This document shows positions 11,224 to 62,799 of a stretch of 64,000 bases of DNA, one piece after another. The notes under the pieces were generated by a model. The model had not been told where the DNA came from, made no database searches, and saw nothing but the letters and a program-made list of their open reading frames with translations. Positions within the stretch are counted from its first letter, which is position 1; each line of letters begins with the position of its first letter. Source of the DNA: Centroscyllium fabricii. Its lineage: Eukaryota. The stretch is taken from contig JBNRSN020000018.1 in the NCBI GenBank assembly GCA_051313645.2, positions 15,500,001-15,564,000 on the forward strand, read 5' to 3'. Position numbers and translations under genes: made by a program.

Positions 11224-12058
11224 GGGCTGGATTTTGTCAATGGGGATGTGATGGAGGCGGGACTCCCCCTTTTTGGGTTGTAGTCCCTCCTCCATCGATT
11301 TGTGGCCAACCCATGTGATTTTGCCTTGATTGATCTTGTTGAGCCTGCCCAGTGGACTCAGCAGGCCGTTTAAGGGCAACCTGGTTACAGGTGAACACAC
11401 AGATTGACATTTCATTTGTCAAGAGCTTTTGACAGATGAAATATCAGTGTTTGACAGCTCTGTGAAGCTGTCAAACACTGACAATCTGACTTCTAACTTG
11501 AGTCCTTTTCCACAGACTCAGTTAGAAACCTCTCCAGAACAGAAAGCAGAATGCTGCAGATTTTGACAGCTCACGGCCATTCTGCTTTCTGTGCCGGTGA
11601 GATGGGGGACTCCCGAGACCTGAAGGAAGGAAGGCTGCATTAGTAAGCAAAGGTTAGTAAAACTTATTTAAACACTTTACACACACCAAACACACTTACC
11701 TCTGCACTCATGCACCCATCACTCACCTGAACACCGGACATCTCGAACCCTCCAAGCCCTTCAGCCCGACGGTCCGCCTCGCTAACTTGGCGTGGTTTGG
11801 CAGCCCACACACTTCAGGGCTAAATATAGGGATTAGGCCAAAAACTGCCTGTTACCTACCCGTTAACAGGCAGTTAATTGGCACCAAACCCCTTCCTGCC
11901 TCGGGGAGGCGGCTCTCAGCACAGGTCGGGTACCCGCCTCTTGGGAAACGGGCATGGAGGCAGGTTAGGGAGGGAAGGGTTTGTGCCCCCCGATTCTGCA
12001 ATTTCCCTCCCACTCCCGCCTCCAAACCCGCCTCCATGGGGCTTGGAATTTCGAGCCC
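11224..12058. mobile_element. Harbinger-type MITE
   Basis: GGGCTGGATTTT ... AATTTCGAGCCC, TSD TAT/TAT; same family as 22865. Confidence 0.75.
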
Positions 12059-18032: not shown

Positions 18033-18871
18033 GGGCCAGAATTTAGGCTCTGCCGTTTGTGCGGGCGCTAGGACCCTGCGGATCCCTATCGCACCGCACC
18101 AACCTCGCACAGTTTTTGCTCCCAGACTTTCGGCTCGGCTCCGCCCCGTTCCTGCGCTGCGTGGCAGTCCAGCCACGCTAGGAGCGCAGTTGATGCTCTG
18201 CCGTCGTGCGTGGGCAGCAGTGATGCCCCGCCCACAGATCACCAATTTAAATTTTAAAAACGCCCACAGATCCCGAGTCGGACCTTTGAGAGAGCAGGGA
18301 CGTGAGGCGCTGCACTCACAGACTCAGCAGTGAGCAGCGCGGCCAGACCAGCTTTTCACCGAAGGTAAGTCAGCGATTTTTTCTCTTAGTTTTTTAACTT
18401 AACTAAATTAGTTAAAAATTTCAGAACTTTTAATTTAAAAATTAGCGATTTGGAATAGGTATAGCAATTGAAAATCGGATTTGTAAATTAAAAAAAAAAA
18501 CTTTTAACATCCAAATTTAATGATACCTATCTGGCCACATTACTCCCAAAAACTGTTAAAATTTAAAATTAAAGGTAAAAAAGTAACTTACCTTGTTTAA
18601 GAATGCATTGCTCTCCCTCACGCACGAGTTAATACTGGTTTTCTTCCGTGCAGCTTGTGGGCCCGTTGCCCACAGAATCACTCATCAATCATCACCCTTT
18701 TGGATCTCAAATTCTGGGTGCAACTCACTCCTGCGTTTGATGCTGAGGGCCCTTCTCCCTCAGCATCCGAAATCTCCGTTACGTGCGTATGTCCCGTGCG
18801 TTCATCGCACGGGGCATTTTGGACCCCTTCCGTGCGTGTGCAGCTTCTGTGGTCAGCACGAAATCTGGCCC
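18033..18871. mobile_element. Harbinger-type MITE (family F2)
   Basis: GGGCCAGA TIRs, TSD AAT/AAT; inverted homolog at 55080. Confidence 0.8.
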
Positions 18872-29352: not shown

Positions 29353-30400
29353 GGCCCAGAAATTCGGGTTGGAGGCTTCCTGCGAGTGAAAGCCTCCAAC
29401 CCACACTTACGGAGTGCACCTGCCGTTCTCCTCTTCTAATAATTAATAATAATAATTCAACTTTATTGTCATTATACAATGTACAAGTACATGAACAACG
29501 AAATGTGATCTTGCAAGCTCCCAAGAGTCCAGCAAAGCCGCTGCGTCTGTGCGCGCCGCCATTCCATCTTTCCATCATTCCGACAATCTTCAGCTAACCG
29601 CCCCTCCCCGGGGCTCCTTTCGTGACCTTCTGCACCTGGCATTCCCTGGTGGTCGCCCCTCCAAGTATTAACCAGGCCTGGCTCTGCTTAGCTTCCAAGC
29701 CTTGCCAGTGGCCCTGTCCCTAGTCCCAGGAACAGGGAGTTGAACTCCCGATGCTAGGCCCTACTCCAGGCCCCACGCGCCGCGCTGAGGCAACTCAGTG
29801 TTGGAGTTAGTGCGAGAGCCCGCGCGGGACCACGTGGTCTGCGGGGAGCCAATCACAGCGAAGAATGCTCCATTCATAACTTTGACAGGCAGAACTGTCA
29901 AAGTTATGAAATACAAGAGCCCCAAAAACACATTAAACATCAAAATAACTTAAAAATTTTTTTTTTTTAACATTACTGTCACTAACATACATTAGCTATT
30001 TTAAACAAAAAATAAAAAATTTGAAAAAATATTTGAAGTGGGCTAAAAAACGACTTACCTTTGTTTAAATTATTTAAAAATAAAAAACCTGTGTAAAAAA
30101 TACTTAAATTGAATAAAACAGAGACTTACCTGATGAAAAGGGGTCGTTAGGGCTGATATTTTCATCCGTACCTTTCCCGATACTTACCCTGCTAAAAAAC
30201 TTGGGAAAAAAATCGGGATTTCAGTGCGCACCTCCTAGCGCGCAGGCCAACGCGCTCCGGCTCCTGACCCCTCCAGACCCGGCATCGGAAGTGCTGGTTC
30301 TGTGCGCATGCTCGGTGTACGCACCGAACCAGCACTTCTGAGGGTCGCACGCGTGAGTACACCGTCCGTACTCGCGCGGTGTGGCCCTAATTTCTGGGCC
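29353..30400. mobile_element. Harbinger-type MITE (F1)
   Basis: GGCCCAGAAATT perfect 12-bp TIR, TSD AAT/AAT. Confidence 0.85.
29438..29736 (-). mobile_element. 5S-rRNA-derived SINE with Rex/Babar tail (copy 1)
   Basis: Reverse complement has GAAGCTAAGCAGAGCCAGGCCTGGTTAATACTTGGAGGGGCGACCACCAGGGAATGCCAGGTGC (5S internal control region) and tail aatgacaataaagttgaa(TTA)n. Confidence 0.8.
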
Positions 30401-32009: not shown

Positions 32010-32722
32010 CGTTAATGGAGTGTATCTTATCTAAGGAAAGATATATTTGCCTTGGAGGCTCTGCAATGAAGGTTCACTAGATTGATCTCTGGGATGAGAG
32101 GGCTGTCCTATGAGGAGAGATTGAGTTGATTGGGCCGATACTCTCTGGAGTTTGGAAGACTGAGAGGTGATCTCATTGAAACTGTGGGGGGATTGACAGG
32201 GTAGATGCTGAGAGATTGTTTCCCCTGGCTGGAGTGTCTAGAACTAGGGGGCGTAGTCTCAGGATAAGGGGGTCGGCCATTTAAGTCTGAGATGAGGAGG
32301 AATTTCTTCACTCAGAGGGTTGTGAGCCTTTGGAATTCTCTGCCCCAGAGGGCTGTGGATGCTGAGTTGTTGAGTATATGCATGATGTGGAGGTGCCGGT
32401 GTTGGACTGGGGTGGACAAATGTAAGAAGTCACACAACACCAGGTTATAGTCCAACAGCTTTATCTGAAATCACAAGCTTTCAGAGCGCTGACGAAGGAG
32501 CAGCGCTCCGAATGCTTGTGATTTCAAATAAAGGTGTTGGAATATAACCGAGTATATTCAAGGCTGAGATCGAGAGATTTTTAGACTCTAAAGGAATCGA
32601 GGGATACGGGGATCGGGCGGGAAAGTGGAGTTGAGGTCGATGATCAGCCATGATCCTATTAAATGGTGGAGCAGGCTCGAGGGGCCGTATGGCCGACTCC
32701 TGCTCCTATTTATTATGTTCCT
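32010..32722 (+). mobile_element. CR1 3' fragment with Penelope-end insertion
   Basis: RFTRLI...LRGDLIE...NFFTQRVV remnants and 3' UTR. Confidence 0.8.
32380..32549. mobile_element. Penelope-like inverted terminal fragment with hammerhead-like core
   Basis: TSD GAGTATAT; inverted arms at about 32443-32490 and 32502-32549; CTGACGA-A-GGAGC-AGC-GCTCC-GAAT-GCTT. Confidence 0.65.
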
Positions 32723-33742: not shown

Positions 33743-33932
33743 ACGTTATCAATCGAGGTTATAGTGAGCTGTGGCTCAGTGGGTAGAGACTCTCTCATCT
33801 CGGAGTCAGAAGATTGTGGGTTCATAGTCGCACTCCATGGACTTGAGCACAAAAATCCAAAATAACAACAGAAAATGCTGGAAAAACTCAGCAGGGCAGG
33901 GCAGCATCCATGGAGAGAGAAACAGAGCTAAT

Positions 33933-34652
33933 GGGCCAGAAATTGCAGTCTGCCCATATCGCGCCAGAGCTTAAACCCGCAGGAAGCAGCCGGTTGCGCT
34001 GCTTCGGGTTTTCCTATGCCGACCAGCGGCGGGGTTGGAGTTACTGCGAGGGCTAGCGCAGGAAGCAGCGAACTAGGGGTTGCATCCAGTAATTTGTTTT
34101 TGTTTTTTACTTTTGCTATGGACCAAGATTCTACGCTGGGAAAAAGCAGTCGTAAGTATCCGTTTTTATCTGGTAAGAGTGTATTTTATTGATTTTAATT
34201 GTTGTTTTTTTAGGTTTTTAATTGTTGATAACTTTAAAGACAGGTAAGTATTTTTTTAGACCTGTTGGAAGTTGAAGATTTTCTTTTTTCTTTAAAATAG
34301 GTCATTTGTGTTGGTTGGTGTAATGTTAAAAAAATGTGGTGTTTGTAAAATTTTATTTTTGTGTTTAGATGTCTTTTGGGCAATCTCTCCTTTCAGAACT
34401 TGCACAGATTTCTCTGTGGAAGTTTTGAACGGAGAATTGGTTCCACTGATTGGCTCCCTGCTAATCAGGTGGTCTCAAAACCAATCTCGCACTAATTACG
34501 CCCTTCAGATGCCCATGAAGCTCGCACGGAGCTCTGACAAGCTGGGCTAACGGGAATTTCTCAGTGCAAAAAAGCAAACCTGAATATGGGCAGTTCAAGT
34601 GCGTTAAGCAGGTACTGCACCCGCACGAAGGCTCCACTGCAATTTCTGGGCC
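33933..34652. mobile_element. Harbinger-type MITE (F1)
   Basis: 17-bp TIR GG(G/C)CCAGAAATTGCAGT, flanks AAT/ATT. Confidence 0.85.
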
Positions 34653-34685
34653 ATTGTTTCAGGTCGAAGACCTTTCGTCAGAACT
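34653..34685 (-). ncRNA. Minimal Penelope-type hammerhead ribozyme core, disrupted
   Basis: AGTT-CTGACGA-A-AGGTC-TTC-GACCT-GAAAC, then the MITE. Confidence 0.65.
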
Positions 34686-38689: not shown

Positions 38690-39452
38690 GGCCCAGAAAT
38701 TAGCCTTGGAGTCTTCCTGCGAGTGCAAGGCTCCAAGTTACACTTACCCTGCACTTTTGCCGTTTTGAAATTCTACGATGTGAACTCCCGAGTTGCACAG
38801 CTGCTGAAAGCTCTATGCGACCTGCTGGTGCAACTCAACGGCGCAATTAATGGGAGATATCGCACAAGACCACGTGATCGGCAGGGAGCCAGTCAGTGGA
38901 AGCAATCCTCCATTCAAAACTTACACGGAGAAATCTGTGTAAGTTTTGAAAAGGAAGAGCTTCAAAAACACATCTAAACACAAAAATAAAATTTAAAAAA
39001 CACCACATTTTTGAACAATACTCTAACTAACATAAATGACCTATTTTAAAGAAAAAATAAAAGTTTAGAAACAAATTTAAAGTCTTTAACTGGCCTAAAA
39101 GAATACTTACCTGTCTTTAAAGTTTAAAAAAATTAAAAACCTGTAAAAACAATACTTACATTCTATTAAATAAAGACTTACCTGCTAAAAACAGCTGCTT
39201 ATGTCTGATATTTTTAAGTGTAAAATCTTCAATACTTACTCCGATAAAAAACTCACAAAATAATCGGAAGTGCACTGCGCACCTCCTGGTGCGCAGGCGA
39301 ACACGACCCAGATCACAGCAGCTCTCGAACCCCCGCTGGCCGCCTTCGGAAATGCAGGTAGCAGCTGGAAACGGCTGCTCCCTGCAATTCGGAGCTCGGG
39401 TGCGCTAACACCCAGCTCAAAAACCTCCCGCGCTCATCGGGAGTTCTGGCAC
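38690..39452. mobile_element. Harbinger-type MITE (F1)
   Basis: GGCCCAGAAATT left end, degenerate right end, flanks AAT/ATT. Confidence 0.75.
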
Positions 39453-40463: not shown

Positions 40464-40872
40464 ACATTAAATTAAATATTTTAAACCAAAATTAAATTTT
40501 TTGATAAAAATAATTAAGGTTTTTTACAGGGCTAAAAATAAACTTACCATTTTTAAAAGTATTTTAACATTATAAATGAGTGTAATTTTTTTTAAAACTC
40601 TTATGCTGGTGAAAGCAGGCCTTACGCAGGCTTTTACCAGGCGTAAGATTGTTTAAAGGTTTTCAGCGGGCGGGGGTTCTGCGTAAAGCGGAACTCTCCC
40701 CCCACCCCGCGCAGAGGCTCTTCTCCAGGGCAGGCGGATGATCTGTCAAGAGGATTCTTCACAAATCGGAAGTGCCGGGATTCAACGCATGCGCTTCGCA
40801 TGCCTGAAACCGACATTTACGAGGCCCCTGTGGGTGTGAACGCACATCCTACGCTCATGTGGGGGTCACAAT

Positions 40873-41809
40873 GGGCCATGTTTTCCTGTGCTCCAGAGGA
40901 GCTTCACACCCACGAAGGGGGTTCAGAAATGCCTCGTGGGTGTGAAGCACGGGTGATTCCCACAAACGTCAATTTCCTGTGCTGATGGGGAAGGAGCTTC
41001 AGCTTCCAACGCAGGAAGACTTTGAACTGCCGATTTCCTGCAGCTGCTCAAAATGCGTGTGTTATCACGTGGACATTTCTGTCTTGAGCTGCACATTTAC
41101 AAATCAGTCGTTGATGGTGAGAAACATGTTGAAAAGCTTTAAAAGGTAAGTTTTTTTTTAATTCCTTTGGTGATGTGTGTGTGTGGTCTTTCAGCTTTTA
41201 AATGGAAGTGTTTTTTTTTCTTTTTGTTTAATTTTTTAAAAAACGGGTTTTTAAACGGGTTTTCAGCAGTTCTGGTGGCTTTTCTTAAAAGCACTTTTAC
41301 CTTATCTCAGAAGACAGCAGCTGGTTAATTTTTACCTTAGGAATGAGGAACCAGTGTTTAAAAAAGAAAATGCTGCAAAACTGTTAAAAACCTGTTTTTA
41401 AAAAAAAAAAAAAAAAATGGGTTTTTAACAGTTTTACAGCATTTTCTTTTTTAAACACTGGTTCCTCATTCCTAAGGTAAAAATTAACCAGCTGCTGTCT
41501 TCTAAAGTGCTTTTACATAGCTGCTGTTTTTGGTGGGGTTTTCAGATCTTTTCACCTGCTGAAAGCCTTTGCTTTCTGCAGGATTCTGTGCTTTGTGCGG
41601 GGGAAAAAGCCGACCTCAGTGGGCGTGGCCTGCTCACAACCCACGCACAAAGCACCTTGCAGCAACAAAAGCCAGACCCCCACGCAGCAAAAAAACCCGG
41701 CATTTTCAGCAGGAAATCGGCGTCAGAAAAAAAAAAATTACGTGCGCGTGCACCACGGGTGCACGGGAGCGCGCACCCGCGGCAAACGGGCCACAGGAAA
41801 ACATGGCCT
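40873..41809. mobile_element. Harbinger-type MITE (F4) with central palindrome
   Basis: 18-bp TIR GGGCCATGTTTTCCTGTG (1 mismatch), TSD AAT/AAT. Confidence 0.85.
41309..41503. repeat. Inverted repeat, 84-bp arms, 27-bp A-rich spacer
   Basis: 41309-41392 vs 41420-41503, one mismatch seen. Confidence 0.9.
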
Positions 41810-41846
41810 AATATCCGGCCCCATATGTTTTCCACTTCAGCCTGAA

Positions 41847-49170: not shown

Positions 49171-50177
49171 GGGCCGGTATTTCCGACCCACGCATATCGC
49201 GTTTGAGCTCTGGTGCGAGCGCACCAGAGCTTAAACGCGCATGAAGCAGTCCAAAGATGTGCAGGTTAGGTTGATTGGCCAGGATAAATTGACCCTTAGT
49301 GTTAGGGGGATTGAATATGTGGGGTTATGGGGGTAGGGTGGGATATGTGTCGGTGCAGGCTCGATGGGGATCGAGGGATGTGGGGACAAGGCAGGGACAG
49401 GGTACTGAATTTGGATGATCAGCCATGATCTCATTGAATGGCGGAGCAGGCTCGAAGGGCCGAATGGCCGACTCCTGCTCCTATCTTCTATGTTTCTATG
49501 TTTGCGCTGCTTCATCTTTTCCGATGGTGGTCAGCAGGGGGGGCAGAGTTTGTGTGATGGCTATCGCAGGAACCAGCGCAGTACAGGGTGCACTGAAACA
49601 TTCCGATTTAAAAAAAAGTTTTTCTACGGACCAAGCACAGAAGATTTTACACTTGAAAAAAGGAGTCGTAAGCACCCATTTTTATCAGGTAAGTCTGTAT
49701 TTTATTGATTTTAAGTCTCCTTTTTTCAGGGTTTTAATTATTGTTAAATTTAAAGACAGGTAAGTATTTTTTTAGGCCTGTAAAACATTGAAAAAAAATT
49801 CCGTACATTTTTCTTTTTTCTTTAAAATAGGTTATTTAGTTGAAGAAATGTTAAAAAAATGTGGGGGTTTTAAAATTTTAATTTTGAGTTTAGATGTGTT
49901 TTGGAAGATCTCTCTTTTGAAAACTTACACAGATTTCTGTGTGTAAGTTTTTAATGGAGGATTGCTTCCATTGATTGGCTCCCTGCCAATCACGTGATCT
50001 CATGCGAGACTTCGAACTAATTACGCCGTTAAGTTGCCCACGGAGCTTGCACAGAGCTCTGTCAAGCTGTGCTAATCGGAAAGTCACAGTGGAAAAACTG
50101 AAAACTGAAAAAGTACTGGGTATGCGCTGATAAGAGCACTGCACCCGCATGAAAGCCCCAATCCTAATTTCTGGCCC
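49171..50177. mobile_element. Harbinger-type MITE (F1) nested in another MITE ending at 50518; contains an HE1 piece (49247-49502)
   Basis: GGGCC termini, TSD ATT/ATT. Confidence 0.75.
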
Positions 50178-50624
50178 ATTGTTTTTTTTTTCTTTTTTCA
50201 ACTCTTATGCAGGTAAAAACAGGCCTTACGCTTTACCAGGCGTAAGATTTCTAAGGGTTTTCAGTGGGCGGAGGTTCTCCAGAAAGTGGATTTCTCCCCC
50301 CCCCCCTCACCCCCCCGCCCCCCCCCCCCCCCACCCCACCCCCTCCGCAGAGGCCCTTCTCCTGGTCAGGCGGCCGATCTGTCAAGAGCATTCTTGCTGG
50401 ATTGGAGATGGCGGTTTTCAGCGCATGCGCTGTGCATGCGCTGAAACCGGCATTTCTGATGTCCCTACTGGTGTGTACACAGCTCGTACGCACCCATGGG
50501 GATCGGAAAATACGGGCCACTATCTTCCATCGTGGCCAAGTCCAATCCAATCTACCCCTATCCTCCACAGAGGCATACTTCCAGCAGGGATTACAGTCAC
50601 TATGGCCAATTTTGCTTTCCGTAA

Positions 50625-54809: not shown

Positions 54810-55960
54810 TGATGCACAATCAATCACTACCAGTCGATGGTCAGATGTAATCAAGGCTTTTATTAACATAGAACTGGACACAGGTCTGACGCTCTTCCAA
54901 GCCAAAGTGAAAGCACTCAGGTGTGCAGGCACTCTTATACTCTGTGGGCGGAGCCTGGGGAGGAAGCCAAAGAGCGGGGTCCTCCCAGGTGAGTCCTCCC
55001 TGACAAGAAGGCAAGGAGTTGCAACCTTATAGTACAGTTACAGTACAGTTACAGGAAGGGGACACAAGGGGGAGATAATGGGCCAGAAATTCCGATGCCT
55101 AAAGCAGATGCCCACGGCGATGCCCACGAAAAATGCCCACGGATCCAAGATGCCCACGGATCTGAAACTTCCGATGCTGAGGGAGAAGGGCCCTCAGCAT
55201 AATGCCCAGGAATGAGTTGCACCCAAAAATTCCGATTCAAAAAGGGTCAAAAAGGGTCATTTTTTTCCATGATTCTGTGGGCAACGGAGCCCACAGATGC
55301 ACTTGAAAAAAGCTGGAGTAACTCGTTGGTGAGGTAGAGAGAAACGTTCTTAAGCATGGTAAGTTAATTTTTTAACTTTAATTTACATTTTTTACAGTTT
55401 TTGGGAGTAGTGTGGCCAGATCGGTAGCGTTAAATTTTTAAGTTAAAGTTTTTTTTTAAATTTAACAAATCCGATTTTAAGTTAATTTACCTGGTTGAAA
55501 TCGCTAATTTTTAAAGTTAAATTTCTGACATTTTTAACTCTCTAGCTAATTTAAAAAATTTAAAAATCTACAAGGAAAAAATGGCTGACTTACCTGCCGT
55601 TTCTTCCTCTGCGAAGCTGCTGTGCCCCCGCGCTGCTCCCCGCGAGTCTGTTGTGCAGCTCCGCACTTACCTGCTCTCACAAAGGTCCGACTCGGGATCT
55701 GTTCATTTAAATTAGGGATCTGGGGGGCGTTTTTTATTTAAATTTGGAATCTGTGGGCGGGGCTTACACTTCGCACGTAGCGTGGCTGGACTGCCACGTT
55801 GCGAGCGAAGGGGGCGGAGCCAATCGGAAATTTTGAGAAAAAAAAACCTCAGATGTTGCTGGGCTTCTTAAATGCTCCGCATGGTCCTAGTTGCCCACCA
55901 ACCGGCAAACCCGAATTTCTGGCCCAATATACAATATATCCAAGATAGTGGTTTACCACA
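54810..55960 (-). mobile_element. Solo LTR split by a MITE
   Basis: TGATGC...TACCACA, TSD ACTGG/ACTGG. Confidence 0.85.
55080..55925. mobile_element. Harbinger-type MITE (F2)
   Basis: 13-bp perfect TIR GGGCCAGAAATTC, TSD AAT/AAT. Confidence 0.85.
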
Positions 55961-56700: not shown

Positions 56701-57790
56701 GGGCGCGAAATTCACGAGCGCACCAATTGGGGCGCTAAAATTGGCGCTGCGCAAAAATTAGCGCTGGCGCTAAATTAGCACTGAAGCGCCTGATATTCAC
56801 TTTAGCGTCGGCCTTGCAGATTTCGGCGCTAAATCAGGTGTTGCACGAGAGCCAGCCAGCCAATTTCGTGGCGCTAATTGCCGATCACCGGCGCAGCGCT
56901 CCTTCAACAACTCCTTGCTTTCCCATGAACTCTGGAGCCGGAAAGGTCTTAAAGTGGGTAGGGGAAACATTGCATGATGTGTCGGCACCCCTCCCTCATC
57001 ATCTCCCCGATCTCTGCCAATACCCCTCATCATCTCCCCGATCTCTGCCAATGCCCCTCATCATCTCCCCAATCTCTGCCAATGCCCCTCATCATCTCCC
57101 CGATCTCTGCCAATGCCCCTCAGCATCTGCCCGATCTCGCCCGATCCACTCATCATCTCCCCGATCTCTGCCAATGCCCCTCATCATCTCCCCGATCTCT
57201 GCCAACGCCCCTCAGCATCTGCCAAAACTCACCCGACCTCCCTCATCATCTGCCCGATCTCTGACAACGACCCTCATCATCTCCCCGATCTCTGCCAATA
57301 CCCCTCATCATCTCCCCGATCTCTGCCAATGCCCCTCATCATCTCCCCTATCTCTGCCAATGCCCCTCAGCATCTGCCAAAACTCACCCGACCACCCTCA
57401 TCATCTGGCTGTTCTCGGGCCTCCCGCCCCCCTCTAGCATCTGCCCGATCTCGGGCCGCCCGACCACCCTCCCCCTCCCGCATCAACTGGCCGATCTCGG
57501 GCCGAAGAGGCTACCGAGGAAAGGGAGTGTCGCCATTTTAGCAGCGCCTGCAGCGGCCACACAAACCCTCAGCAGCGCTTGCCAAAGCTGTCGCTGTTAG
57601 CGCCAGGTGTTAAATCGGCGGCCGCGGCCGAATATGGGGCGCAGGACGGGCGTTGCAGGAGGATCGCGGCTAAGAATCAGGCACTGAAATTGGCGCGCTA
57701 ACAGTTAGCGCCGGCGCTAATCACTAGGTGAATTTAGCGCCCGGCGCTATTTTTGGCGGTAATTCAGCACCGGCCCATTAGCGCCCATTT
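56701..57790. mobile_element. Harbinger-type MITE rich in GCGCTAA motifs, with internal minisatellite
   Basis: GGGCGCGAAATTCAC start, inverted GTGAATTTAGCGCCC at 57728-57742; right end interrupted by CR1. Confidence 0.6.
56992..57410 (+). repeat. Minisatellite, ~31-bp unit, ~13 copies
   Basis: Unit CCCTCATCATCTCCCCGATCTCTGCCAATGC with variants. Confidence 0.9.
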
Positions 57791-58530: not shown

Positions 58531-58870
58531 CGTTGTGGCCTTGAAGTAAGCTTTCCACAAAGATCTTGCAAGCTCTGTGTAGAGACGTTCGGTTGAAATA
58601 AGTGTAAGTTAATGGGGATTCCCTAGTGCGACCTGCTGTGATAGCAACAAGCTGTCTGAGCAGCCAATCACAATGCAGAGTTCTCACAGATGGGGAACCA
58701 GGATGTAAAGAAGCTGTTTTTATTGTAACTTTTTAAAAAATGTTACAGAGAGCAAAACAAAGATTGGGGTTCTCACATGGGGAAAAGGCAAACCTGACAT
58801 AAAGATGAACAAACTCTTTTTTAAATAATTTATTTTAAAGTTTCTTACAAATTTTTATTTTTAATATAAT

Positions 58871-59985
58871 GGGCCCTGTCTTCCTGTGCTCCAGAAGAGC
58901 TGCCCCCCCACGAAAATGCTTCGTGGGGAGGCAGCTCAGGTGCTTACCAGAAACGTGAACTTCCTGTGCTGATGGGCAAGGGGCTTCAGCTTCCTCCCCA
59001 CGAAGCACTTTGAGCTGCAGACTTCCTGTACTCTGATGCTCAAAATTCAGGTGTACAACTTGGGGAAGCCTCCATTTTTCTGCCCACGTAAATACCAGTC
59101 TTAAGAGAGTGCAGGCAGGTTTGAGAAGTGAAAAAAACAGGTTTAAAGTTTTTTAAAAAATTATTCCTTTGGAGATATTTGTTTGTAGTCTTACAGCTTG
59201 TAAATGTGATGGTTTTTATATTTTTTTGTGATAGGTCAAAAATCGGCGATTTGAACCCTTGGCAGCTCTCAGCTGAAACAGCTCTCCCTCACAGCTCTCA
59301 GCGTATAAATCGCCGATTTTTTAACTATCACCAAAAAATAGATAAAGCTTTATGTTTGTTGTCTTACAGCTTGTAAATCTGCTGGTTTATATATTTTTTT
59401 GTGAAATTTTAAAAAATCGGGAATTTGAGCTGTTCAAATTCCCGATTTTTTAAAATTTCACAAAAAAATATATAAACCAGCAGATTTACAAGCTGTAAGA
59501 CAACAAACATAAAGCTTTATCTATTTTTTGGTGATAGTTAAAAAATCGGCGATTTATACGCTGAGAGCTGTGAGGGAGAGCTGTTTCAGATGAGAGCTGC
59601 CAAGGGTTCAAATCGCCGATTTTTGACCTATCACAAAAAAATATAAAAACCATCACATTTACAAGCTGTAAGACCAGCTTCCTACAAACTGAAAAAAAAC
59701 AAAGAAAAACTTCTTCCTTACCTGTTCTTTTCTTTAGTTGAACACTTGATTTTCTTTGATCTGTGCGTTCTGTGGGGGCGTGGTCTCAAAAAGCCGACCT
59801 CAGGGGGCGTGTCCTGCACCCGACCAACGCACAAAGCACTACGCACCAAAAAAAAACAGACCCCTGCCCACGAAAAAAAATCGACATTTCACACAGGAAG
59901 TCCAGCAGATAAAAAAATAAAAAATCTCGGACGGGTGCAAATCTGCACGCACCCGCAGCAACCAGGCCACAGGAAGACAGGGCCC
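58871..59985. mobile_element. Harbinger-type MITE (F4) with giant central palindrome
   Basis: 18-bp perfect TIR GGGCCCTGTCTTCCTGTG, flanks AAT/ATT. Confidence 0.9.
59188..59674. repeat. Near-perfect palindrome, 241-bp arms, 5-bp spacer
   Basis: 59188-59428 vs 59434-59674, spacer GCTGT, one mismatch seen. Confidence 0.92.
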
Positions 59986-60547
59986 ATTGTGTAAATTTGA
60001 CTCTCCACAAAATTAAAATTAGTTTTCCGGGGACAGAATGTTAGCTTAAGGCCCTGTCACACCTTGACGTTTTAGCCAGCGTATGCAAATTTGGCGAAAA
60101 CGTTGGTTTACGTCGGATACGTTATGGGTAAGTTTTGTATACGTTAAGAGCACGCTGGCATACGCTGGCATACGCTGGCATACGTCGTTGAGTCGAGAAA
60201 TTTTGAGCATGCACAAAATTTCTCGACGTATCCTGCGTATGACTCACACGTTCCGCATACGCTGGCCATAAGTTGTAGGCACGTTAGGCGATCGTTGACA
60301 CACGTCGACACACGTTACTTGTAAGTTAGTCATAAGTCAAAATACGTCGAGATAATGTCTAGCGTACCCGAAACTTATTTCTAACCTATGAGTAACGTGC
60401 TTTGAACCTATGTGTAACGTATCTCCAACGCATATTGACGTATGTAGACGTATTTGACGTCTTCCTGACGACCACAGAACTTACTGAATGTGTTTCTAAC
60501 TTACAGCTACCGTATAATGGCGTATTGGCAGCGTTTAGGGGAATTGG

Positions 60548-60556
60548 TATATAAAA
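60548..60556 (+). promoter_or_regulatory. Candidate TATA box of the transposase gene
   Basis: TATATAAAA about 75 bp upstream of the ATG at 60629; AATAAA at 62143-62148 downstream of the stop. Confidence 0.5.
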
Positions 60557-60628
60557 AATGGGGTTCACAGGAGGAACCCGTCAGTGTTCCAGACTCCATG
60601 GTGAGCAGATGTCCATGTCATCCGAGAG

Positions 60629-62115
60629 ATGGAGGATCCGGCAAGACGAGAATACCTACTAGCTGTCCTCCAACATCAACATGCCCTCATCGATTTGACA
60701 CTGTACCAGTTGCGTGCCAATAGAGCCAAGAGAAGAATAGGTGAACGGAGGAGAAGGAACTGGGTGAGACCATGGATCGGGAGGCGACGGCAGTTTGGCA
60801 TGTATGACCAGCTCATGGTGGAACTCCGTAACGAGGACCATGCATCCTTCACCAACTTCCTGCGTATGCCCCCAGCGATGTTCGACGAGCTGCTAGCCAG
60901 AGTGGGTCCAAGGATAACCAAGCAGTACACCTTCTACAGGGATCCGCTTGAGCCTGGCATGAAGCTGGCACTGACTTTGCGTCACCTTGCCTCTGGAAAC
61001 AAGTATGCCTCGATGAAGTTCGCATGGAGGGTCCCTCACAACACCCAGTCCCTAGTGGTCAGAGAAGTCTGTCAAGCCATTATTGACGAATACGTGGATG
61101 AGGTGATGGTTTGCCCAAGTACTCCTGATGGTTGGCGCGCCATAGCTGACAAGTTCTTCCAACGATGGAACTTTCCCCATACATGTGGGGCACTTGACGG
61201 GAAGCACGTGGCCTGCCGCTGTCCTCCAAAGACTGGGTCCCAATACTACAACTACAAAGGATTCTACTCCATTGTTCTGATGGCGCTTGTGGATGCTGAC
61301 TACAAATTCATTTGGGCAGATGTCGGCGGTACTGGATCTGCATCAGATGCGCAGATATACAATGACTCTGAGCTGAAGGAATGCGCTGAAGACGGTACCC
61401 TTCGTTTCACTGACCCTGAGCCTCTTCCCAACGACAACCAGGACGTGCCTTACTTCTTTATCGGTGACGATGCCTTCGCCTTACGACCAACCATGATGAA
61501 GCCATACAGCCTCCGTGGTCTGACGAATGAACAACGCATCTTCAACTACAGGCTTAGCCGAGCAAGGAGGGTAGTAGAAAATGCATTCGGCATCCTGGCT
61601 AACAGATTCCAGGTTCTGCTAAGTACCATGCAGCATCACCCCTCCACTGTCAAGCTCATTGTCAAAGCATGCTTGATCCTGCACAACCTCATGAGGACCA
61701 GGTAATTCATGTTTACATAGCATATATTATACAGTATACAATGAAATTTAACTTTTAGCCTATGCTTATAAACATTATATGATTTACCTTAAATTTTACA
61801 TGTATCATTATATTACTTTTTAATGTACAGCGCATTAGAATATATGTTTTTATTATAGGTGCGCTTTATAAGTAAATAAAATCAAATTCAAATTCCAGGT
61901 ACCCAGGACTACAGAACCAGCAGCTTGACCGGGCAGAGAATGAGAACCGCGACCTTGTTCCAGGAGCATGGCGACAGGGACATCAGTTGGAGGATACACA
62001 GACAGCTACTGGCCCCAACACTGCCTCCAAGGACGGAAGGAAACAGAGGAATCTCCTCAAGCAATGGGTTAACTCCCCAGCTGGCGCAGTTCCGTGGCAA
62101 GATAGGATGATTTAG
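60629..62115 (+). CDS. PIF/Harbinger DDE transposase (HARBI1/ALP1-like family), 2 exons: 60629-61701 and 61899-62115, 429 aa
   Basis: FTNFLRM, GALDGKH (D), YYNYKGFYS, FIGDDAF (D), FNYRLSRARRVVENAFG (E), LHN. A GT-AG intron at 61702-61898 joins in frame to ...WVNSPAGAVPWQDRMI*. Confidence 0.93.
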
Positions 62116-62698
62116 ATATTTGTATTACTGCATTGTTCAGGCAATAAAGGACCTCAGAGACTTTCCTCCTGAAATGAACATCTTATAAAAAGCCTTTTTT
62201 TCAATTATCCACTTTTCAATATACATGTACATTATATTATTATACCTTTTTCAAAGTGTATGAATTTATTATTGTTAATTATTGTTTATGATTTAAATTA
62301 TAAAACAATAACATCAACAAACATCAAGAGTTTGCTCAACTTGATCGTCGGCGAAACGCTGCCGCGCGCTATGCATAAGTTAGACTAGCGTTGGGCATAA
62401 GTTGTGAACGCCGACAACACGCTAAGAATTCGTTGGTATAAGTTGGTATAAGTTATCTGTAAGTTATCGATACGCTCTGTGTACGTTACTAATACGTTAT
62501 GCATACGTCCATCTCGTTATGAATACGCTATTAAACGCCCAAAACTGAAAAAAACATCAATAGTTCAGCGAACGCCAGCGTTTTAGATAAATTTGCATAC
62601 GTCGGCATGCGCTAGCTAATTCGTCAAGGTGTGACAGGGCCTTTAGCAGTCAATGCGCTGTGAAATCCCCAGTTACACCTAACCCAACAAGGTCTAAC

Positions 62699-62799
62699 AT
62701 TTGAAGAAAGGTCATCGACCTGAAACGTTAACTCTGTTTCTCTCTCCACCGATGCTGCCCCGGCCTTCTGAGTTTCTCCAGCGTTTTCTGTTGTTATTT
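62699..62799 (+). mobile_element. Penelope 3'-end micro-insertion with hammerhead-like core
   Basis: 10-bp TSD AAGGTCTAAC; TTGAAGA-A-AGGTC-ATC-GACCT-GAAAC-GTT-AACT. Confidence 0.7.

Follow-up and report, generated by a model that had tools for sequence, protein, structure and literature searches.

The locus is occupied by E2, a MITE-like TIR element whose middle 487 bp form a near-perfect palindrome. It lies in a window of 64 kb, which is the whole stretch of DNA that was analysed (64,000 nucleotides), and its features are collected in Table 1 with those of its relatives. Among all frames of the element, read for length, the longest stop-free one has 113 codons and no transposase coding was found. 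The usual size limit of MITEs is shorter than 1,115 bp. The two target-site copies agree in 2/3 bases and differ in the middle base, so that the flanks are inverted repeats of each other. Within the 64 kb the subfamily of E2 consists of one copy and the full-length AWT elements number seven; no empty site of E2 was found in the window, and Tandem Repeats Finder at score 40 reported nothing in the element. The window is repeat-dense, with 48% of it covered by self-BLAST matches, and on reading many of its long frames look like pieces of LINE reverse transcriptase. For one LINE frame, among the best 120 of 7959 matches, the named ones of highest identity come from sharks and rays: Chiloscyllium (75%), Hypanus (71-72%), Leucoraja (72%), Pristis (65%) and Mobula (62%). 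Named bird and turtle matches stand at 41-54%, and a few further matches at 77-81%. These LINE homologues make a cartilaginous-fish host likely. A degenerate tandem repeat at 56990-57470, whose long open frames encode repeated peptide motifs, is probably the interior of another repeat element.

Table 1. Features of element E2, of its palindrome and of related elements in the window.
Feature	Position	Strand	Basis or remark
Host element E2, non-autonomous TIR element, MITE-like, 1,115 bp	58871-59985	.	TIR pair and flanks
Left target-site copy	58868-58870	+	AAT
Right target-site copy	59986-59988		ATT
Left TIR, 18 bp	58871-58888	+	18/18 identical to right TIR
Right TIR, 18 bp	59968-59985	-	18/18
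Left subterminal inverted repeat	58897-58937	.	Double-sided changes in relatives
Left arm of palindrome	59188-59428	+	Palindrome scan
Spacer	59429-59433	.	Putative role: likely fold-back point of the last round
Right arm of palindrome	59434-59674	-	Palindrome scan; mismatch at 59590
18-bp direct repeat, copy 1	59188-59205	+	Longest exact direct repeat in 59130-59431; outer edge of palindrome, likely return point
18-bp direct repeat, copy 2	59361-59378	+	173 bp after copy 1
Older imperfect hairpin H1	59213-59346	.	u1 (59213-59256) and u2 (59303-59346), 84% alike
Perfect 12-bp spacerless palindrome	59342-59353	.	Joins two 173-bp units; putative role: possible snap-back scar
Central hairpin H2	59361-59501	.	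68-bp arms, u3 and u4
Hairpin H3, mirror of H1	59516-59649	.	u5 and u6
8-nt bulge, then 7 bases complementary to 59181-59187	59675-59689	+	209/10,000 shuffles
Unit u1	59213 (start)	+
Unit u2	59303 (start)	-
Unit u3	59386 (start)	+
Unit u4	59432 (start)	-
Unit u5	59516 (start)	+
Unit u6	59606 (start)	-
Sister element E1, 937 bp	40873-41809	+	TIR 17/18, TSD AAT/AAT, ends ~75% identical to E2
E1 palindrome, 195 bp	41309-41503	.	91-bp arms, 13-nt poly(A) spacer, 88/91 complementary
M18, more distant relative without long palindrome	18033-18871	-	74% over 149 bp to E1 left end
M55, more distant relative without long palindrome	55080-55925	+	72% over 794 bp to M18

The preliminary description of this DNA had reported a 487-bp palindrome with 241-bp arms, a 5-bp spacer and one mismatch, and in each arm a hairpin of its own and a direct repeat. 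The palindrome was reproduced exactly: the spacer reads GCTGT, 240/241 positions of the arms match, and the single mismatch sets G at 59272 against A at 59590. The hairpin was recovered as H1, whose arms were equalled by 0/500 shuffles, and the direct repeat proved to be exact and 18 bp long. In a scan of the window for palindromes with spacers of at most 30 nt, this one ranks first and is the longest; the palindrome of the sister element E1 ranks second. The third rank is held by an inverted repeat at 32443-32549 (49-bp arm, 9-nt spacer, 5 mismatches). As single-stranded DNA the 487 bp have a folding energy of -308 kcal/mol, against -58 +/- 4 kcal/mol for dinucleotide shuffles, none of which (0/20) was as stable. 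The AT content is 65.9% overall and 75% in the central 101 bp, and there is no N anywhere in the window. Another MITE contains a palindrome at 50416-50446 with 13-bp arms and the same 5-nt spacer, which may be chance.

Internally, the palindrome is an array in which a ~44-bp unit occurs six times and switches orientation from one copy to the next. Mirror partners are 98-100% identical and the three unit types 78-84% identical among themselves, which implies at least two age layers, or rounds, of duplication. Predicted folding gives about -30 kcal/mol each for H1 and H3 and -76 kcal/mol for the central H2, so that H2 would be favoured in short single-stranded gaps. E1 has a single-copy stretch homologous to the unit (0/500 shuffles), and the homology to M18 is weak (17/500). 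The unit is closed by a short dyad motif found at the corresponding position in each of the four elements (E2, E1, M18 and M55), and the fold-back axes of both E1 and E2 adjoin copies of this motif.

The kinship of both ends of E2 with the element at 40873 (E1), which had also been proposed, is borne out by 227/300 identical aligned columns at the left end and 187/250 at the right. So is the statement that E1 holds a different palindrome: the two show no detectable common sequence (473/500 and 449/500 shuffles score as well), a common origin was ruled out on these counts, and independent origins are most likely. In E1, positions 41230-41308 repeat the beginning of the right arm directly, in diverged form (0/1000 shuffles), which yields a direct, inverted, direct array, and complementarity resumes for 12 bp beyond an 11-nt bulge (0/10,000 shuffles). 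The left unit of E1 was also compared with its right flank as a candidate older symmetry and was rejected (217/1000 shuffles). A profile of the four elements run against the window found nothing beyond these four, the inverted copies of each, and some weak matches to ends. E1 itself interrupts another GGGCC-ended MITE (40586-41821) at a point ~9 bp within its right TIR. That MITE has a paralog at 50190-50518, and its family has also received the insertion of the element at 49171-50177, so that MITEs nest in each other here.

A long internal palindrome is present in 2/13 MITE segments, namely E1 and E2, and thus in 2/4 of the homologous elements. Hairpin scores in the other 11 segments are 17-33, against shuffle maxima of 21-38, and short hairpins (15-30 bp) lift several of these segments slightly above the shuffles made from them. 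Hairpins with arms of this length occur inside a second group of AWT MITEs, at 29873-29910, 34381-34439, 38899-38963 and 49902-49970; a sequence relationship is visible among the hairpins at 34381, 38899 and 49902. The earlier view that the family generates central hairpins therefore holds for the E1/E2 subgroup, which has two elements, and fails for M18 and M55. As these two retain intact TIRs and TSDs without a palindrome, a long central hairpin is probably not required for transposition, judging from the sequences compared. A whole-element or ancestral family-wide palindrome was considered and rejected: symmetry is not significant between the centre halves of M18 and M55 (323/1000 and 130/1000 shuffles) or in the outer flanks of E2 (327/1000 and 99/1000), though one 20-nt bin of the latter reaches 12/20. 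An exact symmetric 7-mer pair 52 bp outside the E2 arms failed the shuffle control.

Seven full-length elements with GG(G/C)CC ends could be paired in the window. AAT or ATT stands on both sides of all seven and is exact in 5/7, a count conditioned by an end search that specified A[AT]T and left other ANT triplets outside the sample; the candidate end pair 16175/17985 was excluded because its flanks are unmatched. In the remaining 2/7, E2 and the element at 33930-34655, the left copy is AAT and the right copy its reverse complement ATT, and no other kind of mismatch occurs; end-to-end conversion is a possible source of these flanks. The paralogous empty sites of M33 and M55 hold one triplet, which supports a 3-bp target duplication, and the element at 33933 has an empty paralog at 62710-62745 with collinear flanks and a single AAC. 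PIF/Harbinger proper makes a TWA target duplication, whereas the duplication here is AWT; for Pangu the relevant part of PMC4482050 gives ANT and TIRs of 11-40 bp that start with AG or GG. ANT was found at 7/7 elements, and the TIRs are 18 bp long with a GG or AG start. Ends of the E2 type thus fit Pangu, in the PHIS group, through a common 3-bp ANT duplication and TIR type; since E2 differs from Pangu in having no transposase, its putative membership is read from the ends only. Neither an autonomous AWT element nor a cognate transposase was found within the 64-kb window, and section 6 of PMC4482050 gives 15 host genomes for Pangu with no vertebrate among them. Related-looking elements with GGGCT ends at 11224-12058, 6871 and 22865 have other flanking triplets (TAT, CAT and CAG), an indication that a single genome contains more than one PHIS target class.

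The TIRs of E1 and E2 differ from each other at positions 6 and 10, and do so at both ends. In the left subterminal hairpin, a comparison of three elements shows double-sided changes at 5/15 pairs, a number reached by 6/500 shuffles; slid controls gave 1 pair each, and the control covers three related sequences. These patterns suggest that inverted repeats in the E2/E1 family may evolve arm to arm; selection for symmetric transposase-binding sites explains the covariation of the TIRs and subterminal repeats equally well.

A 2.6-kb Harbinger element lies 63 bp from E2 on the plus strand (60049-62642), with a TTA target duplication. Its transposase frame is open, running from 60629 to 61702 and, after a likely GT-AG intron, from 61900 to 62112, and it matches DDE_Tnp_4; no second frame of at least 150 codons was listed that could encode a Myb-type partner. 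The best match is a protein of the prawn Palaemon carinicauda (92% over the whole first exon, 61/71 in the second exon), and the next named matches are proteins of crab, limpet, snail and urchin. These matches make the element a strong candidate for having passed recently, by horizontal transfer, between marine invertebrates and a cartilaginous fish. The part of PMC9179366 concerned gives Harbinger as absent from elephant shark, with other cartilaginous fish still to be tested. As a parent of E2 this Harbinger was rejected: its target duplication is TTA, and BLAST found no other common sequence beyond the start of the TIR. The TIRs themselves (60049-60058 and 58871-58880) match at 9/10 bases with differing target duplications (TTA and AWT), and cross-mobilisation of E2 by its neighbour is possible.

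The reading that we favour, and consider rather probable, is that the palindrome was built by repeated fold-back template switching and is likely a functionless by-product of a non-coding TIR transposon. In a first step, an alternating repeat would have arisen from an older hairpin together with a 173-bp duplication. A nascent strand would next have turned back at the 5-nt loop, taken 241 nt of its own sequence as template, and rejoined the original template by pairing at the 18-bp repeat, for a net gain of 173 bp. Such a step could have taken place during lagging-strand replication or during gap repair after excision of the element, both of which offer single-stranded intermediates, and either at the E2 site itself or in a source element of the subfamily. 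Either arm may have served as template: both unit types of E2 match the unit of E1 about equally (49-50/71), and loop comparisons are weak (755/1000 and 40/1000 shuffles, the central loop against the H1 loop giving 40/1000). The element would have been carried passively by a PHIS-type transposase (Pangu-like, with ANT target) supplied in trans. The repeated fold-back duplication suggested in the preliminary description agrees well with the six alternating units in two age layers and with the independent palindrome of E1 and its direct-repeat copy. The unrelated sequence of the E1 palindrome suggests that palindrome formation is a recurring accident of this MITE family and not a working part of it.

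A model of left flank, mirror and right flank differs at 1 of 601 observed bases, an agreement that holds by construction except at the return point. In favour of fold-back, the outer boundary of the palindrome coincides with the start of the longest exact direct repeat of the arm, whose period is 173 bp. As evidence this coincidence is modest, because the a1/a2 homology in E2 spans ~84 bases and extends 15 bases beyond the boundary, and because in-place correction would also end near the bulge. The length of the tract counts against a long fold-back: template-switch tracts in the cited papers are far below 241 nt, with hairpin stems of 30-55 bases in the relevant part of PMC10710096 and events of <300 bp in a yeast repair mutant in that of PMC5677150. 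The model predicts a precursor 173 bp shorter, that is, a 314-bp form; no such allele was seen in the window, which holds one copy of the subfamily.

Several of these observations could also be accommodated by an old 487-bp structure in which one arm has repeatedly been corrected against the other, by quasi-palindrome correction or by gene conversion, so that the two stay alike without a recent gain of 173 bp. Complementarity that resumes past a short bulge in both E1 and E2, the arm-to-arm covariation of subterminal hairpin and TIRs, and right target copies that are the reverse complement of the left in 2/7 full-length elements all point that way. We nevertheless hold such correction to be unlikely, as it leaves the rise of the six-unit array unexplained, the symmetry of the outer flanks is not significant, and the arms of H1 and H3, which also fold, have stayed only 84% alike. 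An assembly artefact, whether from fold-back or chimeric reads or from polishing that equalised merely similar arms, appears quite improbable. Both ends of E2 are intact and collinear with E1, so that an artefact would require two switches that return in register; a biological repeat marks the edge of the palindrome; the arms are not fully identical, with one differing site, and the E1 palindrome has 3 mismatches and an 11-nt bulge; and the older unit layers, at 78-84% identity, cannot be read artefacts. Near-perfect palindromes are nevertheless a known assembly hazard.

The remaining explanations assign the hairpin a function. If a long central hairpin were a selected trait of the subgroup, inherited by all copies and aiding movement by bringing the ends together, excluding nucleosomes or recruiting repair, its presence in 2/2 members of the closer subgroup, centrally between intact TIRs, would be expected. 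The palindromes of E1 and E2 are unrelated in sequence, however, and unlike in length and spacer; M18, M55 and the other nine segments have none; and synapsis in cut-and-paste elements is performed by transposase bound at the element ends. We consider a selected trait of this kind quite unlikely, and the aid to end synapsis raised in the preliminary description found no support in any tested feature, relatives with intact ends lacking the hairpin. The hairpin may alternatively be kept for dsRNA and small RNAs made upon transcription, which would silence the family or regulate host genes. A read-through transcript would form a 241-bp stem, as modelled from the DNA fold, and template-switch hairpins can become miRNA genes (PMC10710096, in part). 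Against this, the stem of E2 holds the unit common to E1 and not the conserved ends of the family, the stem of E1 shares nothing detectable with that of E2, and 0/36 Rfam matches reach the gathering score, all being sub-threshold matches to generic hairpins; a small-RNA role is accordingly very improbable.

The arms differ by 1 change in 482 sites, or 0.21% (95% range 0.005-1.16%). At the mutation rate of 7e-10 per generation given for epaulette shark in the relevant part of PMC10587355, which is another species, the palindrome would be ~3 million generations old (0.075-16 million), provided that the single mismatch is a mutation; an error of sequencing or copying at that position would invalidate the figure, and conversion would reset it. 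The part of PMC7999016 cited here describes short-spacer palindromes of this size as recombinogenic and reports cruciform extrusion for human PATRRs of 450-595 bp, which makes cruciform extrusion by the E2 palindrome plausible by analogy. According to PMC10766186 and PMC7999016 (each in part), long palindromes with almost no spacer are unstable and seldom occur in natural genomes. A broader proposal, which we regard as doubtful but with some appreciable chance, is that the E1/E2 subgroup acts as a palindrome factory. The central motif would reseed fold-back during post-excision gap repair, and source elements would independently grow nearly spacerless palindromes of 200-500 bp. These would spread as mobile, PATRR-sized cruciform sites tolerated for millions of generations by a slow-mutating vertebrate genome, and self-pairing would also replace one of the two target-site copies by the complement of its partner.

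Should this be true of the subgroup, it would offer many dated, independent natural events for studying the formation, lengthening and decay of palindromes in a vertebrate germline; the palindrome would be no more than an ordinary curiosity if it arose as a single local accident. The long-standing model in which MITEs evolve by fold-back would also become testable through the specific shorter precursor that is predicted. MITEs, template-switch palindromes and palindromic fish MITEs are already known, and the E2 family may already be catalogued in repeat databases such as Repbase or Dfam. What is unusual here is the size of the palindrome, its nested six-unit history and the independent recurrence in the sister element E1. 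In the part of the literature covered, nothing was found on central palindromes in shark PHIS MITEs or on internal palindromes of nonautonomous DNA transposons.

Known systems resemble E2 in different respects, and the papers are cited here for the parts that bear on the comparison. Closest in mechanism are template switching and quasi-palindrome correction (PMC5677150, PMC10710096, PMC13100816), in which a nascent strand copies itself, leaves identical arms, sometimes adds an insertion and acts repeatedly at one locus; nascent-strand fold-back elongates palindromes and inserts sequence in yeast (PMC5677150), and template-switch mutations create hairpins in mammals (PMC10710096; PMC13100816). 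E2 differs in that the tract is 241 nt long, lies in a transposon and is stacked on older rounds as a six-unit alternating array. The fish MITE Angel, for which a fold-back model of origin was put forward (PMC5172404), likewise has a centre rich in A/T, and the model places there the point at which a new strand would turn back and use itself as template. Angel is described as a palindromic element, whereas E2 is symmetric only in its middle and its ends differ beyond the 18-bp TIR, with 2-7/20 complementary bases per bin for 58871-59130 about the axis. Human PATRRs (PMC7999016) are near-perfect, cruciform-extruding palindromes of 200-600 bp, the size range of that in E2, but are >90% AT, and the palindrome of E2 has a lower AT content and resides in a mobile element. 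ODIRA inverted triplications (PMC10766186) share the direct-inverted-direct order and template switching at short inverted repeats; they have an origin and two palindromic junctions that flank an equally old, inverted middle copy, whereas E2 has one near-perfect junction and a scale of hundreds of bases, its other unit pairs being 78-84% identical. Galileo and Foldback elements (PMC4168063) have dynamic inverted repeats in non-autonomous copies, attributed, for the cut-and-paste Galileo, to gap repair with template switching. The TIRs of Galileo lengthen inward from the ends, whereas those of E2 stay at 18 bp and it is the centre that grows.
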